Shown here: piece by piece, positions 1-32,795 of the stretch
Numbering within the stretch: position 1 is the first letter of the stretch
How the letters are laid out: every line of letters starts with the position of its first letter
IMG/VR virus record: IMGVR_UViG_2802429241_000009
Reading direction: 5' to 3' (one strand)
Length of the DNA: 39,485 bases
Origin: a virus
Taxonomy: Duplodnaviria > Heunggongvirae > Uroviricota > Caudoviricetes
Translations under genes and position numbers: made by a program
The notes under the pieces: generated by a model
The model's database searches: none
What the model saw: the letters and a program-made list of their open reading frames with translations, nothing else
What the model was told of the DNA's origin: nothing

Positions 1-1251
1 GTGCTTACCGATACAAAATTAAAAAACCTCAAGCCGCAGGACAAACTGTACAAGGTCTCCGATCGTGACGGGCTGTATGTAGCTGTGCTTACGTCAGGCA
101 CGGTCTCGTTTCGTTATGACTACCGTATCAACGGTCGCCGCGAAACACTGGTAATCGGGCAGTATGGGCGTGACGGTATCAGCCTGGCAGAAGCGCGAGA
201 AGAACTGATTGCTGCAAAGAAGCTGCTTAAAGCAGGCCAGTCGCCGGCTGCGGCTAAACGTGACGGTATCAAAAAGATTCGTGGTGCCGAGACGTTTGCG
301 GTACATACCGACAGTTATATGAAACACGTCATCCTGGCTGACAGTACCCGCGCAATGAAGCAGGCGGTGATCGACCGTGACATACTTCCGGTTCTTGGCA
401 ACAAAATGATGGCTGAAATTACCACATCGATGGTTCGTGATTTGTGTGACCGGATTGTCGAACGCGGTGGTCGGGCAACAGCAGTACAGGCCAGGGAGAT
501 CATCAGCAGCGTATACCGTCACGCCAATGACCGTGGTCATGGTTTGTTTAATCCTGCGGCTGACATTAAACCTTCGTCTATCGCCATATTTAAACCACGA
601 GAGCGAACACTGACACCAGAAGAAATTGGCCTGTTCTTCCGCACGTTGGATGCCATTGGTGCTATGGGCACTATGAAAATGGCTTTAAAACTGGTGCTTA
701 TCACTATGGTTCGTAAGGGCGAATTCGCCAATGCAACGTGGGATGAAATAGATTTTAAAAAATGGACATGGACAATTCCTTCAGACCGCATGAAGGGAAG
801 CCGGGCGCATGTTATTTACCTGCCTAAACAGGCTCAGGATATATTGGTCGGGTTGCAGATGTGCGCTGGTGGAAGTGAATATCTGGTTCCTGGTCGTTAC
901 AATTTCAGGAAGCCATTATCTAATGCCGCGCTGAACTCTCTGATCGACAGAACGGTGAAAATAATAAACGAAGATGGTGAGCATATTCAGGACTTCACTG
1001 TACATGATATGCGCCGTACAGCCAGTACGTTGTTGCATGAGGCTGGTTATCCTTCAGACTGGATTGAAAAGGCTCTGGCACATGAGCAGAAAGGTGTGCG
1101 CGCCGTATATAACAAAGCGGAATACGCCAGACAGCGCGCCTACATGTTGCAGCAGTGGGCCGATATGATTGATTCCTGGATTAACGGGGAGCATACGGAT
1201 CTGATTCCGTTCTCCCCGTCGAAGTTTGAGAAGTGGATGGCGGGGGAATAA
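1..1251 (+). CDS. int: Tyrosine-type phage integrase; GTG start at window position 1, so the true 5' end may lie upstream
   Basis: 416-aa ORF; C-terminal HDMRRTAST...LAHEQKGVRAVYNKAEY resembles the tyrosine recombinase catalytic region (R..H..R..Y); N-terminus typical of prophage integrases. Confidence 0.9.
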   Translation: MLTDTKLKNLKPQDKLYKVSDRDGLYVAVLTSGTVSFRYDYRINGRRETLVIGQYGRDGISLAEAREELIAAKKLLKAGQSPAAAKRDGIKKIRGAETFAVHTDSYMKHVILADSTRAMKQAVIDRDILPVLGNKMMAEITTSMVRDLCDRIVERGGRATAVQAREIISSVYRHANDRGHGLFNPAADIKPSSIAIFKPRERTLTPEEIGLFFRTLDAIGAMGTMKMALKLVLITMVRKGEFANATWDEIDFKKWTWTIPSDRMKGSRAHVIYLPKQAQDILVGLQMCAGGSEYLVPGRYNFRKPLSNAALNSLIDRTVKIINEDGEHIQDFTVHDMRRTASTLLHEAGYPSDWIEKALAHEQKGVRAVYNKAEYARQRAYMLQQWADMIDSWINGEHTDLIPFSPSKFEKWMAGE

Positions 1252-1254
1252 CGT

Positions 1255-1449
1255 TTAATAGTTCTGCTGATTTTCTTCCATCTCTGCTTCTGCTGCCAGT
1301 GATTCAATTTTGTTTTCGAATATTGCTGACAGTGTTGCAAATTCAGCATCAGTGACAGCGGGAATTGGAACAAACCTGATCCCGCTGTGTGCAAGCATGT
1401 TTGCAGTTTCAAGGCATTTTCTTAAATCTGCTGGTGATGCCCTGTTCAT
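1255..1449 (-). CDS. Hypothetical small protein (64 aa), last gene of the leftward early operon
   Basis: ATG overlaps the stop of the upstream methylase gene (ATGA overlap at 1446-1449); acidic C-terminus; no recognisable domain. Confidence 0.4.
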   Translation of the reverse strand: MNRASPADLRKCLETANMLAHSGIRFVPIPAVTDAEFATLSAIFENKIESLAAEAEMEENQQNY

Positions 1450-2096
1450 GCAGCACGCTCCCGTCCCTGGTTGTCTGTTGGTGACAGCGGAGCATTGCTG
1501 AATGCATTTGTTAATCCGCCAATATCCAACGCGTATCCAGGGTGTAGTTGCACTGCCGGGTCTTCGCACTGATTACCCCAAACATCGAAGCCATGAGACG
1601 TCTGGCGGGCGAACAGTTCAATGCGAGAAACATCGCCTAATAATTGCACAAGTTTTTCACGAACGATATCTGGCTTTCTTGAATGCTCAAGCCGCGGTGC
1701 GGTAAATGACTGAACGATCCCTGCATTAATGCGCGTAGGTAGTTTTCCCTTTACCGCAAACAGGCAATCTTCACTATTGGCGCGAGTCATGTGTCCCATA
1801 CCCATAACAAGTTTATCTGGTTGTCGACTACCACATTTTATCCACGTGAAGCCCTTCATCGTCATCAGACGGAATCCCCAGGCTTCAACAACTTTTAGTG
1901 CTTCGAGTGGTTGTGTTGGCACCCACCACATGGCCAACAGACAGTTTTCATCGGCCAAATCCCACACAGGAAGGCGGCAGATATCCAGCACACTCATAAC
2001 CGGATATTTAAAACCGGCACCGCGATTACCATCTGCGGCTTTGTCCCGGTATACCCAGGGTGGATCTGCATAGATTAGTGTGTATTTCTTAGTCAT
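1446..2096 (-). CDS. MT-A70 family DNA N6-adenine methyltransferase
   Basis: N-terminal LIYADPPW motif; about 216 aa; start taken at the ATG giving MTKKYT (GTG at 2108 is an alternative). Confidence 0.8.
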   Translation of the reverse strand: MTKKYTLIYADPPWVYRDKAADGNRGAGFKYPVMSVLDICRLPVWDLADENCLLAMWWVPTQPLEALKVVEAWGFRLMTMKGFTWIKCGSRQPDKLVMGMGHMTRANSEDCLFAVKGKLPTRINAGIVQSFTAPRLEHSRKPDIVREKLVQLLGDVSRIELFARQTSHGFDVWGNQCEDPAVQLHPGYALDIGGLTNAFSNAPLSPTDNQGRERAA

Positions 2097-2340
2097 AAAC
2101 CACCCCACAACATCCTATGCCGCTATAGTCGCCACGGCGAAGGCCGTTACCTTTTGTGATACATTGGTCCCTGCGAACCGCGATCCTTGCACGCTCAACA
2201 TCACCAGAAGCAACATCCATACACTGAAGCCAAAGGTAGGCGGCAATTCGGAATTGCCCTTTTTGCTCTCTTTCAATCGCGCGTTTTTCGATCTCTATCG
2301 CCGCAGGAGTAACGGCAACAACCTTTGAAGGGCTGCGCAT
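2089..2340 (-). CDS. Hypothetical protein (83 aa)
   Basis: ORF with AAGG Shine-Dalgarno before the ATG at 2340; 3' end overlaps the methylase start; ORF could extend to 2388. Confidence 0.4.
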   Translation of the reverse strand: MRSPSKVVAVTPAAIEIEKRAIEREQKGQFRIAAYLWLQCMDVASGDVERARIAVRRDQCITKGNGLRRGDYSGIGCCGVVYD

Positions 2341-2497
2341 TGAAACCTTGTTCATGTGATATTTTTCAAGTCGGCTTAACTCTCTCACTTAATCCAACCC
2401 TCTCTGAAAATTAATGCCAGCAGATAAAGCCATGCTGAAACAGAGGCCAGGAATAAGTACCATCCTGACCATTTGCTCCAGTGCTTTAGCAGCACAC

Positions 2498-2746
2498 TCA
2501 TGCCGCGTTGCTCACAGGACGATATACACGTTGCTGAACAGGAGGTTTTTTACCTTGGAACTCTGCCGGGCTTGCTGCCTGACGTTCATCAAGCCAACGC
2601 TCAACTTCATCACGGTTCCATGCGCAGCGTTTGTCAGTGATATACCAGCGTTTAGGAAATTCCCCTGCGCGCTCCATACGGTCGATAGTGCTCCATGACA
2701 GTGGCACCACCGCCAGGAGTTCCTTCTTACCTAATGCACCTTTCAT
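2498..2746 (-). CDS. AlpA-family small HTH protein (excisionase / transcriptional regulator candidate)
   Basis: 82 aa; helix-turn-helix segment KKELLAVVPLSWSTIDRMERAGEFP; good SD (AGAGAGGT) before the ATG. Confidence 0.65.
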   Translation of the reverse strand: MKGALGKKELLAVVPLSWSTIDRMERAGEFPKRWYITDKRCAWNRDEVERWLDERQAASPAEFQGKKPPVQQRVYRPVSNAA

Positions 2747-2795
2747 AAATACCTCTCTTGGTTGCAGTGCGGCGCGTGTTGCGCCGCGGTGGTGG

Positions 2796-3677
2796 TTACA
2801 TAGATGTTTCGTTTAATTCTTCCCGACGAACGCTGTAAACGTCGGTGGCTTTTGCCAGCAGTTCGTCATCATCTGAAAGTTTTTGTGCAATGTATTTGTA
2901 AGCCTTATCCAGTTCGGAGACAGTGCTGTAATTCATCGCTGCGCTGGTAAAGGCCATCAGCATTTCTTCTGGCTCACGGCTATCCGCTTTACGCGTTTGC
3001 TCATCAGGCTTTTTCACTGATTTAGCGTTGATCAGACTGTTCATTCCCGCAGCCGTAGTCATTTGCGGAGTAATGTCTCGCTCAACGCGCGGTGCCGTTT
3101 CCTGTAATTCGTCAGGGGTGTAAACACCAAGAAGTACATCAGGAGCGTGCAGGCGAGCCCATCGTTTCGTGCAAAGATAGGCAAGTTGCTGGCGCGGATC
3201 CTGTTCCCACAATGGAGAGTTACGCACTCCGGCTTGCGCCATACTGATGGTAAGCTCACGTGGTTCTGCTTCTCCTTTAAGGACTGCTGACACAGTTACC
3301 GTCAGATTCGGTGATTTATCTGTTTTGCCGTTAACATTCGACCAGTCACCGCTCCAGCGATAATTCAGGCGTGTCGCTAGCAGGCTGGAAGAGGATACGA
3401 CCGCGTTTACCAACTGTGCTTCGTAGCCTAACGTTCCGTTTACCACATGCGTTTTCTGCGCCACGGCGAAAGGGTTCATTCCCCACTGTGCCGCCTGCAT
3501 GGTCACCGCCAGGCAATCGGCAGGTTTGCCTTCAAGATGTTTCGGTACAGTCACTTTGCTTTGTGACATCAACTCAGCGAAACGCACCAGTTGATTCATG
3601 CCCTCGGAGCTGAAGATTGCCGCAGCAGTGCCTACAGTTGTGCCTGGTTGTGATGTGATTGCGATATCATTGCTCAT
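2796..3677 (-). CDS. RecT/Red-beta family single-strand annealing protein
   Basis: 293 aa; segment PRVERDITP resembles the ERQPERDITPV region of lambda Bet as recalled; start overlaps the exonuclease stop (ATGA). Confidence 0.75.
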   Translation of the reverse strand: MSNDIAITSQPGTTVGTAAAIFSSEGMNQLVRFAELMSQSKVTVPKHLEGKPADCLAVTMQAAQWGMNPFAVAQKTHVVNGTLGYEAQLVNAVVSSSSLLATRLNYRWSGDWSNVNGKTDKSPNLTVTVSAVLKGEAEPRELTISMAQAGVRNSPLWEQDPRQQLAYLCTKRWARLHAPDVLLGVYTPDELQETAPRVERDITPQMTTAAGMNSLINAKSVKKPDEQTRKADSREPEEMLMAFTSAAMNYSTVSELDKAYKYIAQKLSDDDELLAKATDVYSVRREELNETSM

Positions 3678-4495
3678 ACGTACATATCCTGTTTACGTGC
3701 CCAGTCAGGGCGTTTAATAATTTCCACTCCGCCCCATTCATCGTTGATGCGGCATTCGTGATAGGTATTCAGATCCCGGCGGAACAGAGCGTGCCCGGCA
3801 TCGACATCTGGCGCATCCAGCTCGAACACGCGTACCGGATACCGACCACAATCAATGCTTTCGCTCACGGCAAGAAAGAAAAAACCATGCGGCTGACCAG
3901 TAACCCTCATTGCGCCTTCGCGGTACATTGCGTCCTGCACGTGGTAGCGGAATTCCTCGATGTGGCGTGCAAAACGGTCCATATCTGCAACCTTTTTCAC
4001 GTCGACGATCACGTTGTGCTCGTTCAGCCATTTGTCTGGACGAATGCGGCACAACTCACCAGTCTCTTCATCGTTCCAGTACATTGATGCTTCGCAGTAA
4101 CCAGGTGCTTCCAGCATCCAGCGTGCCGCCGGGTGAGCCATTGCGCTATCACGCATCAGCTCCAGTTTCCGCCACTGCTCGGCATCAAGTACCGTAATCC
4201 CCATATCCGCTACATCACGAAGAAATGCCCCTTCGTCAGCTTTACCTTGTTTTGTCCGACGATCGAATTTCGGTGAAACGATGAAGCGTTTGTCAAACTC
4301 TCCAGGTTCCAGAAGCAGACAGTGCAGAGCAGTACCCATGTCCAGTGCAGACTTCTTCTCTTCGTCTTCCGGAGCAGCCTTCACCCATTTCAGAAGGGCA
4401 GGGTTCTTAGCCACCATATCTAGCTGCGACTTACTCACGCCGTCACCGGCGTGGTAGTCCTCGTTGCTGATATCGAAATAAATTCCCGGATTCAT
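3674..4495 (-). CDS. Recombination exonuclease (RecE C-terminal-like PD-(D/E)XK nuclease), partner of the annealing protein
   Basis: 273 aa directly upstream of, and coupled to, the RecT-like gene; start overlaps the upstream stop. Confidence 0.65.
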   Translation of the reverse strand: MNPGIYFDISNEDYHAGDGVSKSQLDMVAKNPALLKWVKAAPEDEEKKSALDMGTALHCLLLEPGEFDKRFIVSPKFDRRTKQGKADEGAFLRDVADMGITVLDAEQWRKLELMRDSAMAHPAARWMLEAPGYCEASMYWNDEETGELCRIRPDKWLNEHNVIVDVKKVADMDRFARHIEEFRYHVQDAMYREGAMRVTGQPHGFFFLAVSESIDCGRYPVRVFELDAPDVDAGHALFRRDLNTYHECRINDEWGGVEIIKRPDWARKQDMYV

Positions 4496-4791
4496 GCCGC
4501 GTCCCTCTGCCCATCAATCTGATCAGCCAGATCCCAGCGGGCGATAATTGCCATTGCCTCGCGACGGTAGGCATCCATCAGTTCTTCGAACTCAGGGCTG
4601 TCTTTAGCAGCCTCCAGTACTTCCTGACGAACGCCTTTGCCTGTTACAACGTCGAAAGTTGAGGACAGTTGATGAAGTCGGATGCTCTCAATCAGTTCAA
4701 CTTGTCGGTCATATAGCTGTTCTGACAGGCGGTAGTCCTTGTCGAATGCCAGCATGATTTTTTGAAGATTTTTCTGCTGATTAACGTTCAT
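4492..4791 (-). CDS. Hypothetical early protein (99 aa)
   Basis: ORF coupled to the exonuclease gene (ATGA overlap); internal ATG giving MNVNQQ chosen because the upstream 50-aa ORF stop overlaps it. Confidence 0.5.
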   Translation of the reverse strand: MNVNQQKNLQKIMLAFDKDYRLSEQLYDRQVELIESIRLHQLSSTFDVVTGKGVRQEVLEAAKDSPEFEELMDAYRREAMAIIARWDLADQIDGQRDAA

Positions 4792-4793
4792 TA

Positions 4794-4946
4794 TCAGCCC
4801 TCCCATATCTCGTTATCGTTGGCCACATCGCGAGCTTCTTTGCTGACGAAAGCCCACTTAATGCCTTCCTGTAAGGTGCGGAACTTCCAGCTCATGAATC
4901 CGCATGCAGTAACGCAGTACCAACCGTTGATGATTTTCCACTGCAT
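4794..4946 (-). CDS. Hypothetical 50-aa protein, first gene of the leftward early operon
   Basis: Not in the ORF track (under 60 aa); ATG at 4946 preceded by GAGG; stop overlaps the next start; sits just downstream of the PL-like promoter and operator. Confidence 0.35.
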   Translation of the reverse strand: MQWKIINGWYCVTACGFMSWKFRTLQEGIKWAFVSKEARDVANDNEIWEG

Positions 4947-4965
4947 AACTTGTTACCTCGGTCTG

Positions 4966-4980
4966 TTACCGTTGAGGTAA
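4966..4980. promoter_or_regulatory. Operator-like palindrome TTACC-N5-GGTAA (left operator region, downstream of PL-like promoter)
   Basis: Exact 5+5 inverted repeat; an extra TTACC half-site at 4953..4957; 62 bp from the site at 5028. Confidence 0.55.
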
Positions 4981-5008
4981 TGATTATGCGTATCTGGTTT
5001 GGTGTCAA
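4981..5008 (-). promoter_or_regulatory. PL-like promoter candidate for the leftward early operon
   Basis: Perfect -35 TTGACA on the minus strand (plus-strand 5003..5008); weak -10 candidates (TAATCA at 16-bp spacing or CATAAT at 14 bp); bracketed by operator sites. Confidence 0.4.
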
Positions 5009-5027
5009 TAGATATGAGTTAAAAAAA

Positions 5028-5042
5028 TTACCCATAAGGTAA
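5028..5042. promoter_or_regulatory. Operator-like palindrome TTACC-N5-GGTAA (left operator region, upstream of PL-like -35)
   Basis: Exact inverted repeat between the repressor terminator and the TTGACA -35. Confidence 0.55.
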
Positions 5043-5052
5043 TCACATAGGC

Positions 5053-5077
5053 AATAAAAAAGCCGCCAGAAGGCGGC
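5053..5077 (-). terminator. Intrinsic terminator downstream of the repressor gene
   Basis: Minus-strand hairpin GCCGCC-TTCT-GGCGGC followed by TTTTTTATT. Confidence 0.75.
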
Positions 5078-5099
5078 TTACTTACTGAAAAGTATGATT

Positions 5100-5684
5100 T
5101 TATTGTTTGTTTTTTTCGTTCTGGTTGATGACAAATTCAATGTAACTTTCGATCTTTGCTTTCTCGGTTTCGGGTAACAATGCGTAGCGCGAGCGATCAT
5201 AGTTGATGGTCGCAGGGTCGTGCGGGTGAATCAGTAATTCATAGCCGTGACGCCCGAATGCGGATGCAACATTCTCCAGGGTGGAAATGGAAACGCTGAC
5301 CTCATTGTTTAACAGGCGGCTGATTGTCACCTGGGCGACGCCGGATGCGCGGTGTAGTTTTCCCTGCGTTGAAAGGTCGCGGCTTTCGCTCATCCAGCGT
5401 TCCAGGTTGTGAGCCGCCAGCTGACCAATGTCGCTAGGGCCGACAGGCTGAAAACCTTCCTGAGAAAGCGAGCGATCGATATCAAGCCAGTTACGGGGTT
5501 TATTGGCGGCAGCTTCAATTTTTCGCGCAACCTGGTCGCCGATAACCTTCTTGCCAAGAGCCCAGCGGTTTACCAGATTTGCCTGAGTTCCAAGTTTTTC
5601 AGCCATCCGCGTCTGAACACCATTGAATTCACGGTCGATCAAGTCGTTGAGATTTTGCCTGCGGACGTCCTGGATACTTTTCAT
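5100..5684 (-). CDS. Prophage repressor candidate (CI-like position, two HTH-like segments, no visible autocleavage module)
   Basis: 194 aa, divergent from the Cro-like gene; followed by an intrinsic terminator; no Ala-Gly/Cys-Gly plus Ser-Lys peptidase module recognised by eye. Confidence 0.65.
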   Translation of the reverse strand: MKSIQDVRRQNLNDLIDREFNGVQTRMAEKLGTQANLVNRWALGKKVIGDQVARKIEAAANKPRNWLDIDRSLSQEGFQPVGPSDIGQLAAHNLERWMSESRDLSTQGKLHRASGVAQVTISRLLNNEVSVSISTLENVASAFGRHGYELLIHPHDPATINYDRSRYALLPETEKAKIESYIEFVINQNEKNKQ

Positions 5685-5739: not shown

Positions 5740-5754
5740 TTACCCAACAGGTAA
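5740..5754. promoter_or_regulatory. Operator-like palindrome TTACC-N5-GGTAA (immunity region site 1)
   Basis: Exact inverted repeat between the divergent repressor and Cro-like genes. Confidence 0.6.
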
Positions 5755-13811: not shown

Positions 13812-13888
13812 TGGCGTGGCATGCAGGATTCGAACCTGCGACCAACCGCTTAGAAGGCGGTTGCTCTGTCCGACTGAGCTAATGCCAC
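13812..13888 (-). tRNA. tRNA-Arg (anticodon UCU), phage-borne
   Basis: 77 nt with full cloverleaf: 7-bp acceptor GTGGCAT/ATGCCAC, D-stem GCTC/GAGC, anticodon stem ACCGC/GCGGT with loop CTTCTAA, T-arm GCAGG-TTCGAAT-CCTGC, encoded CCA; close to E. coli argU as recalled. Confidence 0.85.
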
Positions 13889-32509: not shown

Positions 32510-32667
32510 GGCAATCACCTTTTAGTATGGTTAATCACCACCTGAGGTGCAAATCTCGTTGGTGGTGAGACGTACAGGGTTTGCACTACCGGCTAAAAGG
32601 ACCCGGCGCACCTTTCGGTGCCCCTGCACGTCCCACCATAATTCTGGCATGACTGTGCTATACGCAT

Positions 32668-32690
32668 AAAAAAACCACGTCTGGCGTGGT
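32668..32690 (-). terminator. Intrinsic terminator inside the antirepressor upstream region (attenuator or 3' end of a short RNA)
   Basis: Minus-strand ACCACG-CCAGA-CGTGGT followed by TTTTTTTAT. Confidence 0.6.
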
Positions 32691-32750
32691 ATGCGCCTTT
32701 TAGTAATCCGGGGTGCAAATCCCGGCACTGGATTTTGCCAGTGCTCGATT

Positions 32751-32780: not shown

Positions 32781-32795
32781 TTACCGCAAAGGTAA
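32781..32795. promoter_or_regulatory. Operator-like palindrome TTACC-N5-GGTAA adjacent to a candidate leftward promoter of the antirepressor leader
   Basis: Exact; abuts the candidate -35 (TTTACA on the minus strand). Confidence 0.5.

Follow-up and report, generated by a model that had tools for sequence, protein, structure and literature searches.

The left end of the IMG/VR virus record IMGVR_UViG_2802429241_000009, a stretch of 39.5 kb (39,485 nucleotides) that we call the window and whose first base is at the start codon of an integrase gene (int), carries between positions 4946 and 1255 a run of minus-strand genes that includes a recombination module and a methyltransferase of the MT-A70 family. 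An initial annotation, made from the sequence alone, described this run as a leftward early operon chained by ATGA overlaps, with a hairpin inside it and two candidate anti-host genes at its 5' end. One would wonder whether such a locus is a new kind of unit, how it is expressed and what its less familiar members could do. Our answer to the first question is that positions 1255-4946 are the early leftward operon, already annotated and already known, of a common phiV10/epsilon15-type prophage of Escherichia coli. We put at roughly 85% the probability that the region works as the repressor-controlled early-left (PL) operon of a prophage of this type, which belongs to the genus Uetakevirus.

According to the list of open reading frames (ORFs), a reading of the sequence and a junction script, nine minus-strand genes follow each other without interruption from 4946 to 1255. 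The continuous run described earlier is apparent in the ORF listing, and the count of eight genes that went with it has to be raised by one, the ORF of 38 amino acids (aa) at 2385-2501 having been overlooked. The genes and the stem-loop that they enclose are as follows, together with the convergent int gene.

1..1251, plus strand: int, P4-type tyrosine integrase (Pfam Arm-DNA-bind_3, Phage_int_M and Phage_integrase; phiV10p31)

1255..1449, minus strand: 64-aa DUF1382 protein, homologue of lambda Orf63, last gene of the operon (PF07131, 1.8e-30; phiV10p32)

1446..2096, minus strand: predicted 216-aa MT-A70 (DPPW) N6-adenine methyltransferase (PF05063, 2.6e-22; phiV10p33)

2089..2388, minus strand: 99-aa PerC/ANR-like small regulator with a GTG start (Pfam PerC, 2.4e-06; phrog_868, 2.7e-60)

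2385..2501, minus strand: 38-aa hydrophobic (membrane) protein (phrog_17484, 2.6e-26; phiV10p35, epsilon15 gp32, SPN1S_0036)

2498..2746, minus strand: 82-aa AlpA-family protein, probable excisionase/transcriptional regulator (Phage_AlpA, 3.1e-05; phrog_66, 2e-16)

2769..2787, minus strand: stem-loop GCGGCGC-GTGTT-GCGCCGC with a 7-bp all-G/C stem and no U run, in the 49-nt spacer between the RecT and AlpA genes

2796..3677, minus strand: 293-aa RecT single-strand annealing protein (Pfam RecT, 3.1e-31; phrog_561, 7e-144)

3674..4495, minus strand: predicted 273-aa exonuclease, or 'short RecE' (PDB 3H4R, 5.5e-78; Pfam DUF3799)

4492..4791, minus strand: 99-aa protein, modelled as all-helical (phrog_856; phiV10p38, epsilon15 gp36)

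4794..4946, minus strand: 50-aa protein, first gene of the operon (phrog_898, 1.9e-38; phiV10p39, epsilon15 gp37)

Hereafter, 'the 99-aa protein' designates the helical one and 'the PerC-like protein' the other. The Pfam matches bear out the MT-A70, RecT and AlpA assignments of the initial annotation. Its statement that the methylase adjoins the recombination genes does not hold, since the AlpA gene, the 38-aa ORF and the PerC-like gene lie between the methylase and RecT. All operon genes are under purifying selection in comparison with Salmonella relatives, with ratios of nonsynonymous to synonymous substitution rates (dN/dS) of 0.04-0.20.

From 5' to 3', the eight junctions measure +2 (TGAtaATG), -4 (ATGA), -4 (ATGA), +49 (the hairpin spacer), -4 (ATGA), -4 (GTGA), -8 and -4 (ATGA) nucleotides, negative values being overlaps. 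Three of the four ATGA overlaps claimed previously are present, at 4495/4492 (99-aa gene/exonuclease), 3677/3674 (exonuclease/RecT) and 1449/1446 (methylase/64-aa gene), as is the 8-nt overlap at 2096/2089, whereas the fourth, at 4794/4791, turned out to be a gap: the minus strand there reads GGGCTGAtaATGAAC, i.e. a TGA stop, two nucleotides and an ATG preceded by a GGGAGGG Shine-Dalgarno sequence. This gap exists likewise in phiV10 and epsilon15, and it is identical in 78 of the 83 related IMG/VR loci. Two further 4-nt overlaps had been missed, ATGA at 2501/2498 (alpA/38-aa gene) and GTGA at 2388/2385 (38-aa gene/PerC-like gene). At its 3' end, the operon does converge on int with 3 bp between the stops, as stated earlier (int stop at 1249-1251, stop of the 64-aa gene at 1257-1255).

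The region is carried by several published phages. Positions 1255-5100 are matched over 100% of their length by the Escherichia phages phiv142-3, vB_EcoP_ZX5 (ZX5), Phi05_2388 B and TL-2011b, with 96-97% identity (97% for phiv142-3 and ZX5), by phiV10 with 94.5% identity and 95% coverage, and by the Salmonella phages 65FD, SPN1S and SPC32H with about 78-79% identity. The annotated relatives all fall in, or cluster with, the genus Uetakevirus, which comprises the epsilon15-like podophages. At least 80% of 1255-5100 was also found in 453 of 5,426 complete E. coli genomes (about 8%), where the Prokaryotic Genome Annotation Pipeline (PGAP) labels the products RecT, PD-(D/E)XK nuclease, MT-A70 and PerC. 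Because of the 94-97% identity to published phages and of these 453 genomes, we assign the window to a common, published prophage type, Uetakevirus (epsilon15/phiV10-like). Its early-left genes are collinear with those of the type members and show high nucleotide identity to them.

More precisely, the nine genes recur with unchanged order and orientation in phiV10, ZX5, phiv142-3 and TL-2011b (94-97% nucleotide identity), as do the 3-bp convergence on int, the 2-nt gap that follows the 50-aa gene, the hairpin spacer and the terminator/promoter region. The differences are small: the loop of the hairpin is AACAC in the window and CACAC or CACGC in the phiV10 group, and the RefSeq record of phiV10 has a fused RecE-RecT ORF of 1761 nt and a PerC-like gene that starts at an internal ATG (88 aa). 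Gene-for-gene annotation is already available in phiV10p32-p39, in epsilon15 gp28-gp37 and in ZX5. The elements that the initial annotation listed, i.e. the genes, the hairpin and the convergence on int, are all annotated in phiV10 or epsilon15, and so are, in epsilon15, the operators, which that list did not contain.

How, then, could the operon be controlled? The following features lie between the 50-aa gene and the repressor gene.

4966..4980, strandless: operator-like palindrome TTACCGTTGAGGTAA, which takes in the final base of the -10 hexamer and runs into the region where transcription probably starts

5008..4980, minus strand: putative early-left promoter PL, TTGACA, 17 nt, AATCAT (10/12 consensus match)

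5028..5042, strandless: second operator-like palindrome, TTACCCATAAGGTAA, upstream of the -35 hexamer

5060..5079, minus strand: predicted intrinsic terminator of the repressor gene, with an 8-bp stem followed by TTTTATT, also annotated as a terminator in phiV10

5100..5684, minus strand: 194-aa repressor with two helix-turn-helix (HTH) domains, orthologue of the SPC32H Rep (PDB 5D50 'Repressor', 4e-42; phiV10p40)

In our promoter scan of the minus strand within 1200-5100, PL stood alone as a good sigma-70 match, and its -35 hexamer is perfect and invariant across 7 phages. The two TTACC-N5-GGTAA palindromes are likewise perfect, bracket PL and are kept across 7 phages; this motif occurs 13 times in the window for 0.66 sites expected. 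The RefSeq record of epsilon15 annotates the equivalent sites, here and genome-wide, as 'protein_bind: repressor'. A Rep-type repressor gene with putative operators of this kind at the promoter corresponds to the control region of Uetakevirus, as far as can be judged from sequence only. Experimentally, the 97%-identical phage ZX5 changed its lytic/lysogenic balance and the transcription of its genes when the repressor or the anti-repressor was overexpressed (PMC9782041). The terminator at 5079..5060, directly downstream of which PL is situated, is predicted to insulate the operon from transcription of the repressor gene. Inside the operon, on its strand, and between the operon and the convergent int gene, the terminator scan returned no terminator-like site; a relaxed promoter scan (at least 8/12) gave nothing convincing upstream of alpA or perC, and Rfam recognized no known RNA family within 1255-5100. 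Altogether, the sole good promoter at 5008..4980, the repressor palindromes and the lack of an internal terminator agree with the designation 'leftward early operon' given by the initial annotation.

We propose that in a lysogen Rep (5100-5684) would occupy the two TTACC-N5-GGTAA operators that bracket the sigma-70 promoter at 5008..4980, and that the terminator at 5079..5060 would block repressor-gene transcripts from entering the operon. Derepression would then yield one polycistronic mRNA encoding, in this order, the 50-aa and 99-aa proteins, the short RecE-type 5'-3' exonuclease and RecT, followed by the stem-loop and by AlpA, the 38-aa protein, the PerC/ANR-like protein, the MT-A70 methylase and the Orf63-like protein. 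With overlaps of 4-8 nt at six of the eight junctions, translation of neighbouring genes would probably be coupled, as in other parts of this compact genome. The stem-loop would most likely act at the RNA level, either as a pause site or as a structure protecting 3' ends, and would let the upstream recombination genes accumulate differently from the downstream excision and modification genes. Finally, with no terminator recognised on the way, transcription would proceed into the facing int gene in antisense direction. Positions 1200-1300, where the int and operon stops face each other, contain no terminator-like structure, and since none separates the operon from int, each of the two transcripts probably reads antisense into the other gene. 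At this position, epsilon15 differs in having another gene and an annotated RNase III site.

Several points weigh against this scheme. The idea of one single operon comes from the absence of predicted internal promoters and terminators in consensus scans, and in the related module of phages encoding Shiga toxin (Stx) the methylase gene and the gene upstream of it are reported to be co-transcribed from a stationary-phase-induced promoter (PMC10810198). By analogy with this precedent, an internal promoter could also serve the distal genes here. In addition, the proposed -10 hexamer AATCAT fits the consensus at only 4 of 6 positions, and a few natural variants disrupt one pair of the hairpin.

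The comparison with epsilon15 shows what is constant and what is exchanged in this operon. The two phages share the backbone of 50-aa gene, 99-aa gene, exonuclease, RecT, stem-loop, AlpA/Xis, 38-aa gene and PerC-like gene, followed by MT-A70, as well as the operator palindrome and its genome-wide scatter, the protein identities to the window ranging from 52% to 85%. On the other hand, epsilon15 has an exonuclease of YqaJ type and a longer RecT allele, and a third operator with about 60 extra bp before gp37; an additional gene, gp30, separates its perC from the methylase, and the place of the Orf63-like gene is taken by one for serotype conversion. A parallel can also be drawn with the lambda pL operon and the Rac recET region, in which a repressor-controlled leftward operon encodes an exonuclease and an annealase, then small accessory genes and an excisionase. 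The window shares an Orf63/DUF1382 homologue with lambda, and with Rac the RecE nuclease domain and the position of the exonuclease before the annealase. In contrast to lambda, it has no N antiterminator gene and no homologue of Gam, Kil or cIII in the operon, its int gene is on the opposite strand and outside the operon, and its repressor gene lies directly upstream on the same strand with a terminator in between.

The recombination genes themselves are of a familiar kind. The 273-aa protein is, by homology, a predicted RecE-type (exonuclease VIII) nuclease domain alone: its residues 12-268 align with residues 5-261 of PDB 3H4R (exodeoxyribonuclease 8), and it matches positions 606-873 of the 877 of NCBIfam PRK09709, with a score under the full-length cut-off since about 600 N-terminal residues are absent. 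RecT is identified by its Pfam match (PF03837) and by the pairing of its gene with the exonuclease gene through the ATGA overlap, and has a dN/dS of 0.08. In close relatives, the exonuclease and RecT come as two unrelated cassettes, a RecE-type enzyme with a 293-aa RecT or a YqaJ-type enzyme with a 340-aa RecT. The boundaries of the cassette are fixed, at the stop of the 99-aa gene, where the 4-nt overlap is kept, and at the stop of recT, which the conserved hairpin follows closely; in seven loci, the exonuclease gene is preceded by an offset of 199 nt. Two genes with an ATGA overlap encode RecE and RecT in the window, in ZX5 and in TL-2011b. The RefSeq record of phiV10 shows one fused ORF instead (L001, 4042-5802), which could mean a genuine fusion or else a frameshift in one of the records.

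What could be the role of the stem-loop downstream of this cassette? The perfect 7-bp stem is exactly where the initial annotation placed it, with no U/T run on either strand, and its spacer is the only real intergenic one of the operon. The free energy is about -15.6 kcal/mol for the hairpin and -17.7 kcal/mol for a 54-nt spacer (z -2.8). Perfect GC-rich 7-bp hairpins number 10 in the window for 0.92 expected, several of the others being stems of terminator-like sites (e.g. at 5061 and 6092). About 85 related loci retain the stem around a loop that varies (AACAC, CACAC, CACGC, CACGT, CACG), with one compensatory change of a C-G to a U-A pair in Salmonella phages and a few singleton variants that break one pair. 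The hairpin is more than a product of chance. With its 7-bp all-G/C stem and 5-nt loop it has the G+C-rich stem-loop of an intrinsic terminator, but the stem is followed by ACUGCAACCAAG on the minus strand and GGTGGTGGTTAC on the plus strand. Since there is no U tract, it is not a canonical intrinsic terminator, and the terminator scan of the region did not report it; an action at the RNA level seems most likely. The suggestion of a processing, pause or partial-termination site is plausible and not a new one, the orthologous structure being annotated in the RefSeq record of epsilon15 as 'stem-loop; transcriptional pausing'.

The initial annotation saw in it a partial terminator or processing site, and the furthest-reaching form of this idea is that the hairpin, as an attenuating terminator or an RNase processing site, splits the operon into two expression units, so that AlpA, the 38-aa, PerC-like, methylase and Orf63-like genes would be expressed at a lower level or controlled separately. 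The 49-nt spacer, the strength of the stem and its conservation with a compensatory change and a variable loop all speak in favour of it, as does the pausing label given by the epsilon15 annotators. Moreover, alpA has its own strong Shine-Dalgarno sequence 10 nt past the stem, and the hairpin stands just past the swappable exonuclease-recT cassette, 8 nt downstream of the recT stop, and is kept with both recT alleles. The missing U run and the silence of the terminator scan count against a terminator, however, and classical RNase III sites need a stem longer than 7 bp, which makes this one too short. The conservation could also reflect a DNA-level palindrome bound by a protein. We regard the division into two units as possible, but tend to doubt it, and prefer the single transcript with a pausing or protecting structure proposed above.

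The product of 1446-2096 is predicted by homology to be an adenine methyltransferase of the MT-A70 family (class beta, DPPW). The PF05063 match spans positions 1-172 of the 172 of the profile, the catalytic motif YADPPW is at residues 9-14, and the best PDB match is the ciliate MT-A70 7F4R (4e-13), followed by METTL3. With 216 aa, the protein is close to a bare MT-A70 catalytic core and has no obvious target-recognition domain. An enzyme of the M.EcoGII type, i.e. a non-specific class-beta methyltransferase of about 349 aa with a DPPY motif and a central target-recognition domain (PMC5778455), was considered and rejected in view of the size, the DPPW motif and the MT-A70 family of the present protein. 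The GATC motif, with 151 sites for 203 expected under a second-order model (ratio 0.74), is only mildly under-represented and is evenly spread along the prophage, so that its avoidance is uninformative as a clue to specificity. A methylome of lysogens, which had been suggested as a way to find the target, would be a poor test because the operon lies behind a repressor-controlled promoter.

The closest known system is the module of Stx2 phages represented by M.EcoGV and by M.EcoPA8orf6770P with its partner PNB-2 (phages phiPA8 and P13374). Residues 1-187 of the methylase are 83% identical to the P13374 enzyme, which also has the DPPW motif; among the 123 phage records in the 80-90% identity band, those listed are Stx-converting phages. 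As here, a small gene overlaps the start of the methylase gene, a DUF1382 gene follows it (in P13374) and int is nearby. The upstream partner differs, being PerC-like in the window and a winged-HTH protein, PNB-2, in the Stx2 phages, and so do the C-terminal tail of the enzyme (about 29 residues) and the surrounding phage, here a Uetakevirus and not an Stx phage. The closely related M.EcoGV has been assigned GATC specificity after overexpression (PMC6602927; PMC10810198). In assays of S-adenosylmethionine (SAM) consumption, M.EcoPA8orf6770P together with PNB-2, the product of the upstream gene, prefers 16S rRNA and 30S subunits, and alone it displays weak, non-specific activity on DNA and RNA (PMC10810198).

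On this basis, one could assume that the methylase of the window does not mainly protect phage DNA and acts with a small partner protein on RNA, i.e. 16S rRNA, to modulate induction or translation. This hypothesis would agree with the 83% identity to the Stx2-phage type of enzyme, with the preference and the partner dependence observed for M.EcoPA8orf6770P, and with the near-bare catalytic core. It would also fit the 8-nt overlap between the PerC-like, regulator-like gene and the methylase start, an ANR-family gene being similarly located directly upstream of a 40%-identical MT-A70 gene in the Serratia phage BZS1. No PNB-2 gene is adjacent to the methylase gene or elsewhere in the window, which departs in this from a phiPA8-type PNB-2-dependent 16S rRNA methyltransferase. 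BLASTP gave no alignment of the upstream PerC-like protein with phiPA2 PNB-2 or with P13374 ORF08; PNB-2 has a weak HTH_11 signal, whereas the protein of the window matches PerC, and its candidacy as a PNB-2 equivalent was rejected for lack of similarity. The C-terminal residues in which the enzyme differs are those suggested to be important for PNB-2 binding (PMC10810198), M.EcoGV is listed with a DNA specificity, and the rRNA claim itself comes from SAM-consumption assays in which no modified base was identified (PMC10810198). In epsilon15 and SPN1S, genes are inserted between perC and the methylase, so that the pairing is not obligate. An action on RNA is unlikely in our opinion.

Temperate phages repeatedly have a methylase downstream of their recombination genes, as here, and the enzyme in this position varies. 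This slot contains MT-A70 after Gam-Bet-Exo together with a Dcm-type methylase in a Klebsiella phage (L097, 2498-3918), a Dam-family (PF05869) enzyme in another locus (L088, 5723-6274), and a methyltransferase with a DGQHR-domain protein in SPN1S (L005, 1696-3281). It is a swap hot spot for methylases.

The two leading proteins raise another question. The initial annotation had proposed that the 50-aa and 99-aa ORFs stand where lambdoid phages keep Gam or Kil. We consider both as real genes on the strength of their families (phrog_898 and phrog_856), their conservation and the purifying selection on them (dN/dS of 0.10 and 0.19, respectively). Both families are narrow, enterobacterial and without named members. 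The N-terminal 25 or so residues of the 50-aa protein (codons 4872-4946; MQWKIINGWYCVTACG.MSWKFRTL) are almost invariant in homologues from E. coli, Salmonella and Klebsiella, its C-terminal half diverges freely, and one variant, P0080, carries a 9-residue internal duplication. For the 99-aa protein, a homology search gave 53 matches, all enterobacterial and unnamed, and an exhaustive profile search of 1.84 billion representatives gave only 32 proteins and no link to a named family; no IMG/VR loci were found for its distant homologues P0072 and P0068. Its AlphaFold2 model is a helical hairpin (mean predicted local distance difference test score, pLDDT, 70.6) with no specific structural neighbour.

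The most informative property of the 99-aa gene is its neighbourhood. Among 36 phage records with a homologue, it adjoins an exonuclease gene in nearly all those that are annotated, and this adjacency extends to 60-kb Klebsiella phages and to loci whose homologue is only 37% identical. In 75 of 83 IMG/VR loci, it lies directly upstream of the exonuclease gene with a 4-nt overlap, and this exonuclease is of RecE type in 56 loci and of YqaJ type, as in epsilon15, in 19, the two types being unrelated. As the 4-nt overlap exists with either type, the 99-aa gene stays in place while the exonuclease-recT cassette is exchanged. Such synteny is easier to reconcile with an accessory that serves the recombination module in general than with a protein that belongs to a single nuclease as its subunit. 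An attractive hypothesis, drawn from this conserved overlap with either exonuclease, would be that the 99-aa protein is an unrecognised general accessory of phage exonuclease/RecT modules, the most interesting version being that it inhibits or modulates RecBCD or another host nuclease and is neither a Gam nor an Abc protein. We hold it for a long shot.

The same facts could be read in favour of anti-host factors analogous to lambda Kil, a cell-division inhibitor, and Gam, the RecBCD inhibitor. Both genes lie close to the promoter and immediately precede those for the exonuclease and the annealase, like lambda gam, and both are under purifying selection; the 99-aa gene precedes two unrelated exonuclease types with a 4-nt overlap and keeps its neighbour down to 37% identity, and its product is predicted to be all-helical, like Gam. 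The searches gave this reading no help. Pfam, NCBIfam and PHROGs scans returned no functional match for either protein. With hhalign, the 99-aa family reached a probability of 12% over 34 columns against lambda Gam, 0.2% against Rac RacC and 0.3% against full-length RecE, the last value leading us to reject a detached RecE N-terminus as well. Phmmer and profile searches against a set of 23 lambda and Rac early proteins (including Gam, Kil, cIII, Ral and Ea10, and KilR, RacC, YdaE, RalR and RcbA) were non-significant: the 99-aa protein scored 7.4 bits against lambda Gam with phmmer, and the 50-aa protein gave E-values of at least 0.87 against lambda Kil and Rac KilR with phmmer and with hmmsearch of the family profile. 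BLASTP of the 50-aa protein against YdaE showed nothing meaningful. The Gam/Kil suggestion is thus left with position as its argument, and we judge the pair improbable as Kil and Gam analogues; a Gam-like 99-aa protein would be a minority possibility that the evidence does not favour.

As for the emphasis of the initial annotation on ATGA chaining, it is very unlikely that the overlaps are a special regulatory device by which translation would be obligatorily coupled along this operon and no other, for although they are kept in relatives and exact 4-nt overlaps are nominally enriched (5/8 here, 9/38 elsewhere in phiV10, p=0.044), overlaps of any length are no commoner than elsewhere (6/8 in the operon, 20/38 same-strand junctions in the rest of phiV10, Fisher p=0.44), the first junction is not an overlap and comes with a separate Shine-Dalgarno sequence, alpA has its own too, and 4-nt overlaps are the most frequent junction type in compact phage and bacterial operons. 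Because overlaps are as common in the rest of the phage genome, the chaining is ordinary compaction and coupling and not special to this operon.

The remaining small genes agree with their annotation in relatives. The 64-aa protein matches DUF1382 over positions 1-60 of 60 and PDB 8DSB with 8.5e-13, and the RefSeq product of lambda orf63, in the exo-xis region, is a 'DUF1382 family protein'. The PerC-like protein is assigned to PerC by PF06069 (28.2 bits for a cut-off of 22.6); the NCBIfam ANR_neg_reg model also hits it, at 4.5e-05 and 23.2 bits, below its cut-off of 32. Its phrog_868 match covers positions 1-99, and its 11 N-terminal residues are conserved, the epsilon15 and SPN1S orthologues starting with ATG at the same position; this conserved extension supports the 99-aa form of the gene. 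The 38-aa protein has 76% amino-acid identity and a dN/dS of 0.20 in comparison with epsilon15. The 82-aa protein matches the AlpA family PF05930 with 24.2 bits (cut-off 21) and phrog_66, defined as 'excisionase and transcriptional regulator', which is its probable role; alpA has its own AGAGAGG Shine-Dalgarno sequence and a dN/dS of 0.06.

Some observations concern the prophage beyond the operon. The 15-bp TTACC-N5-GGTAA sites start at 4966, 5028, 5740, 5788, 8021, 8083, 11395, 11413, 14211, 31743, 32781, 32874 and 33993. Those at 5740 and 5788 lie where the repressor gene and the rightward early genes diverge, and the sites are mostly intergenic and upstream of genes throughout the prophage, beyond the immunity region. 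The repressor appears to control many prophage promoters directly. Next to the palindromes at 32781 and 32874, predicted genes for a C4 antisense RNA (Rfam, 77.8 bits) and for the Hfq-binding RNA isrK (67.4 bits) lie side by side on the minus strand (32558-32643 and 32668-32744). This region looks like the immI-type antisense control of P1/P7, presumably of an anti-repressor gene. Finally, a tRNA-Arg gene (anticodon TCT) was detected by ARAGORN and Rfam at 13812-13888 on the minus strand.

As it stands, this operon is a re-description of a published and annotated system and matters little. Annotators can directly use the nine-gene model, start the PerC-like gene at its GTG codon and treat the 38-aa ORF as a real gene. 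Two of its products could be of wider interest. The 99-aa protein is a cheap candidate accessory for RecET-type recombineering systems, for which no Gam equivalent is known. As for the methylase, its 83%-identical Stx relative has been given conflicting substrates, and the version found here, which goes without the partner of that enzyme, would be a natural comparison.

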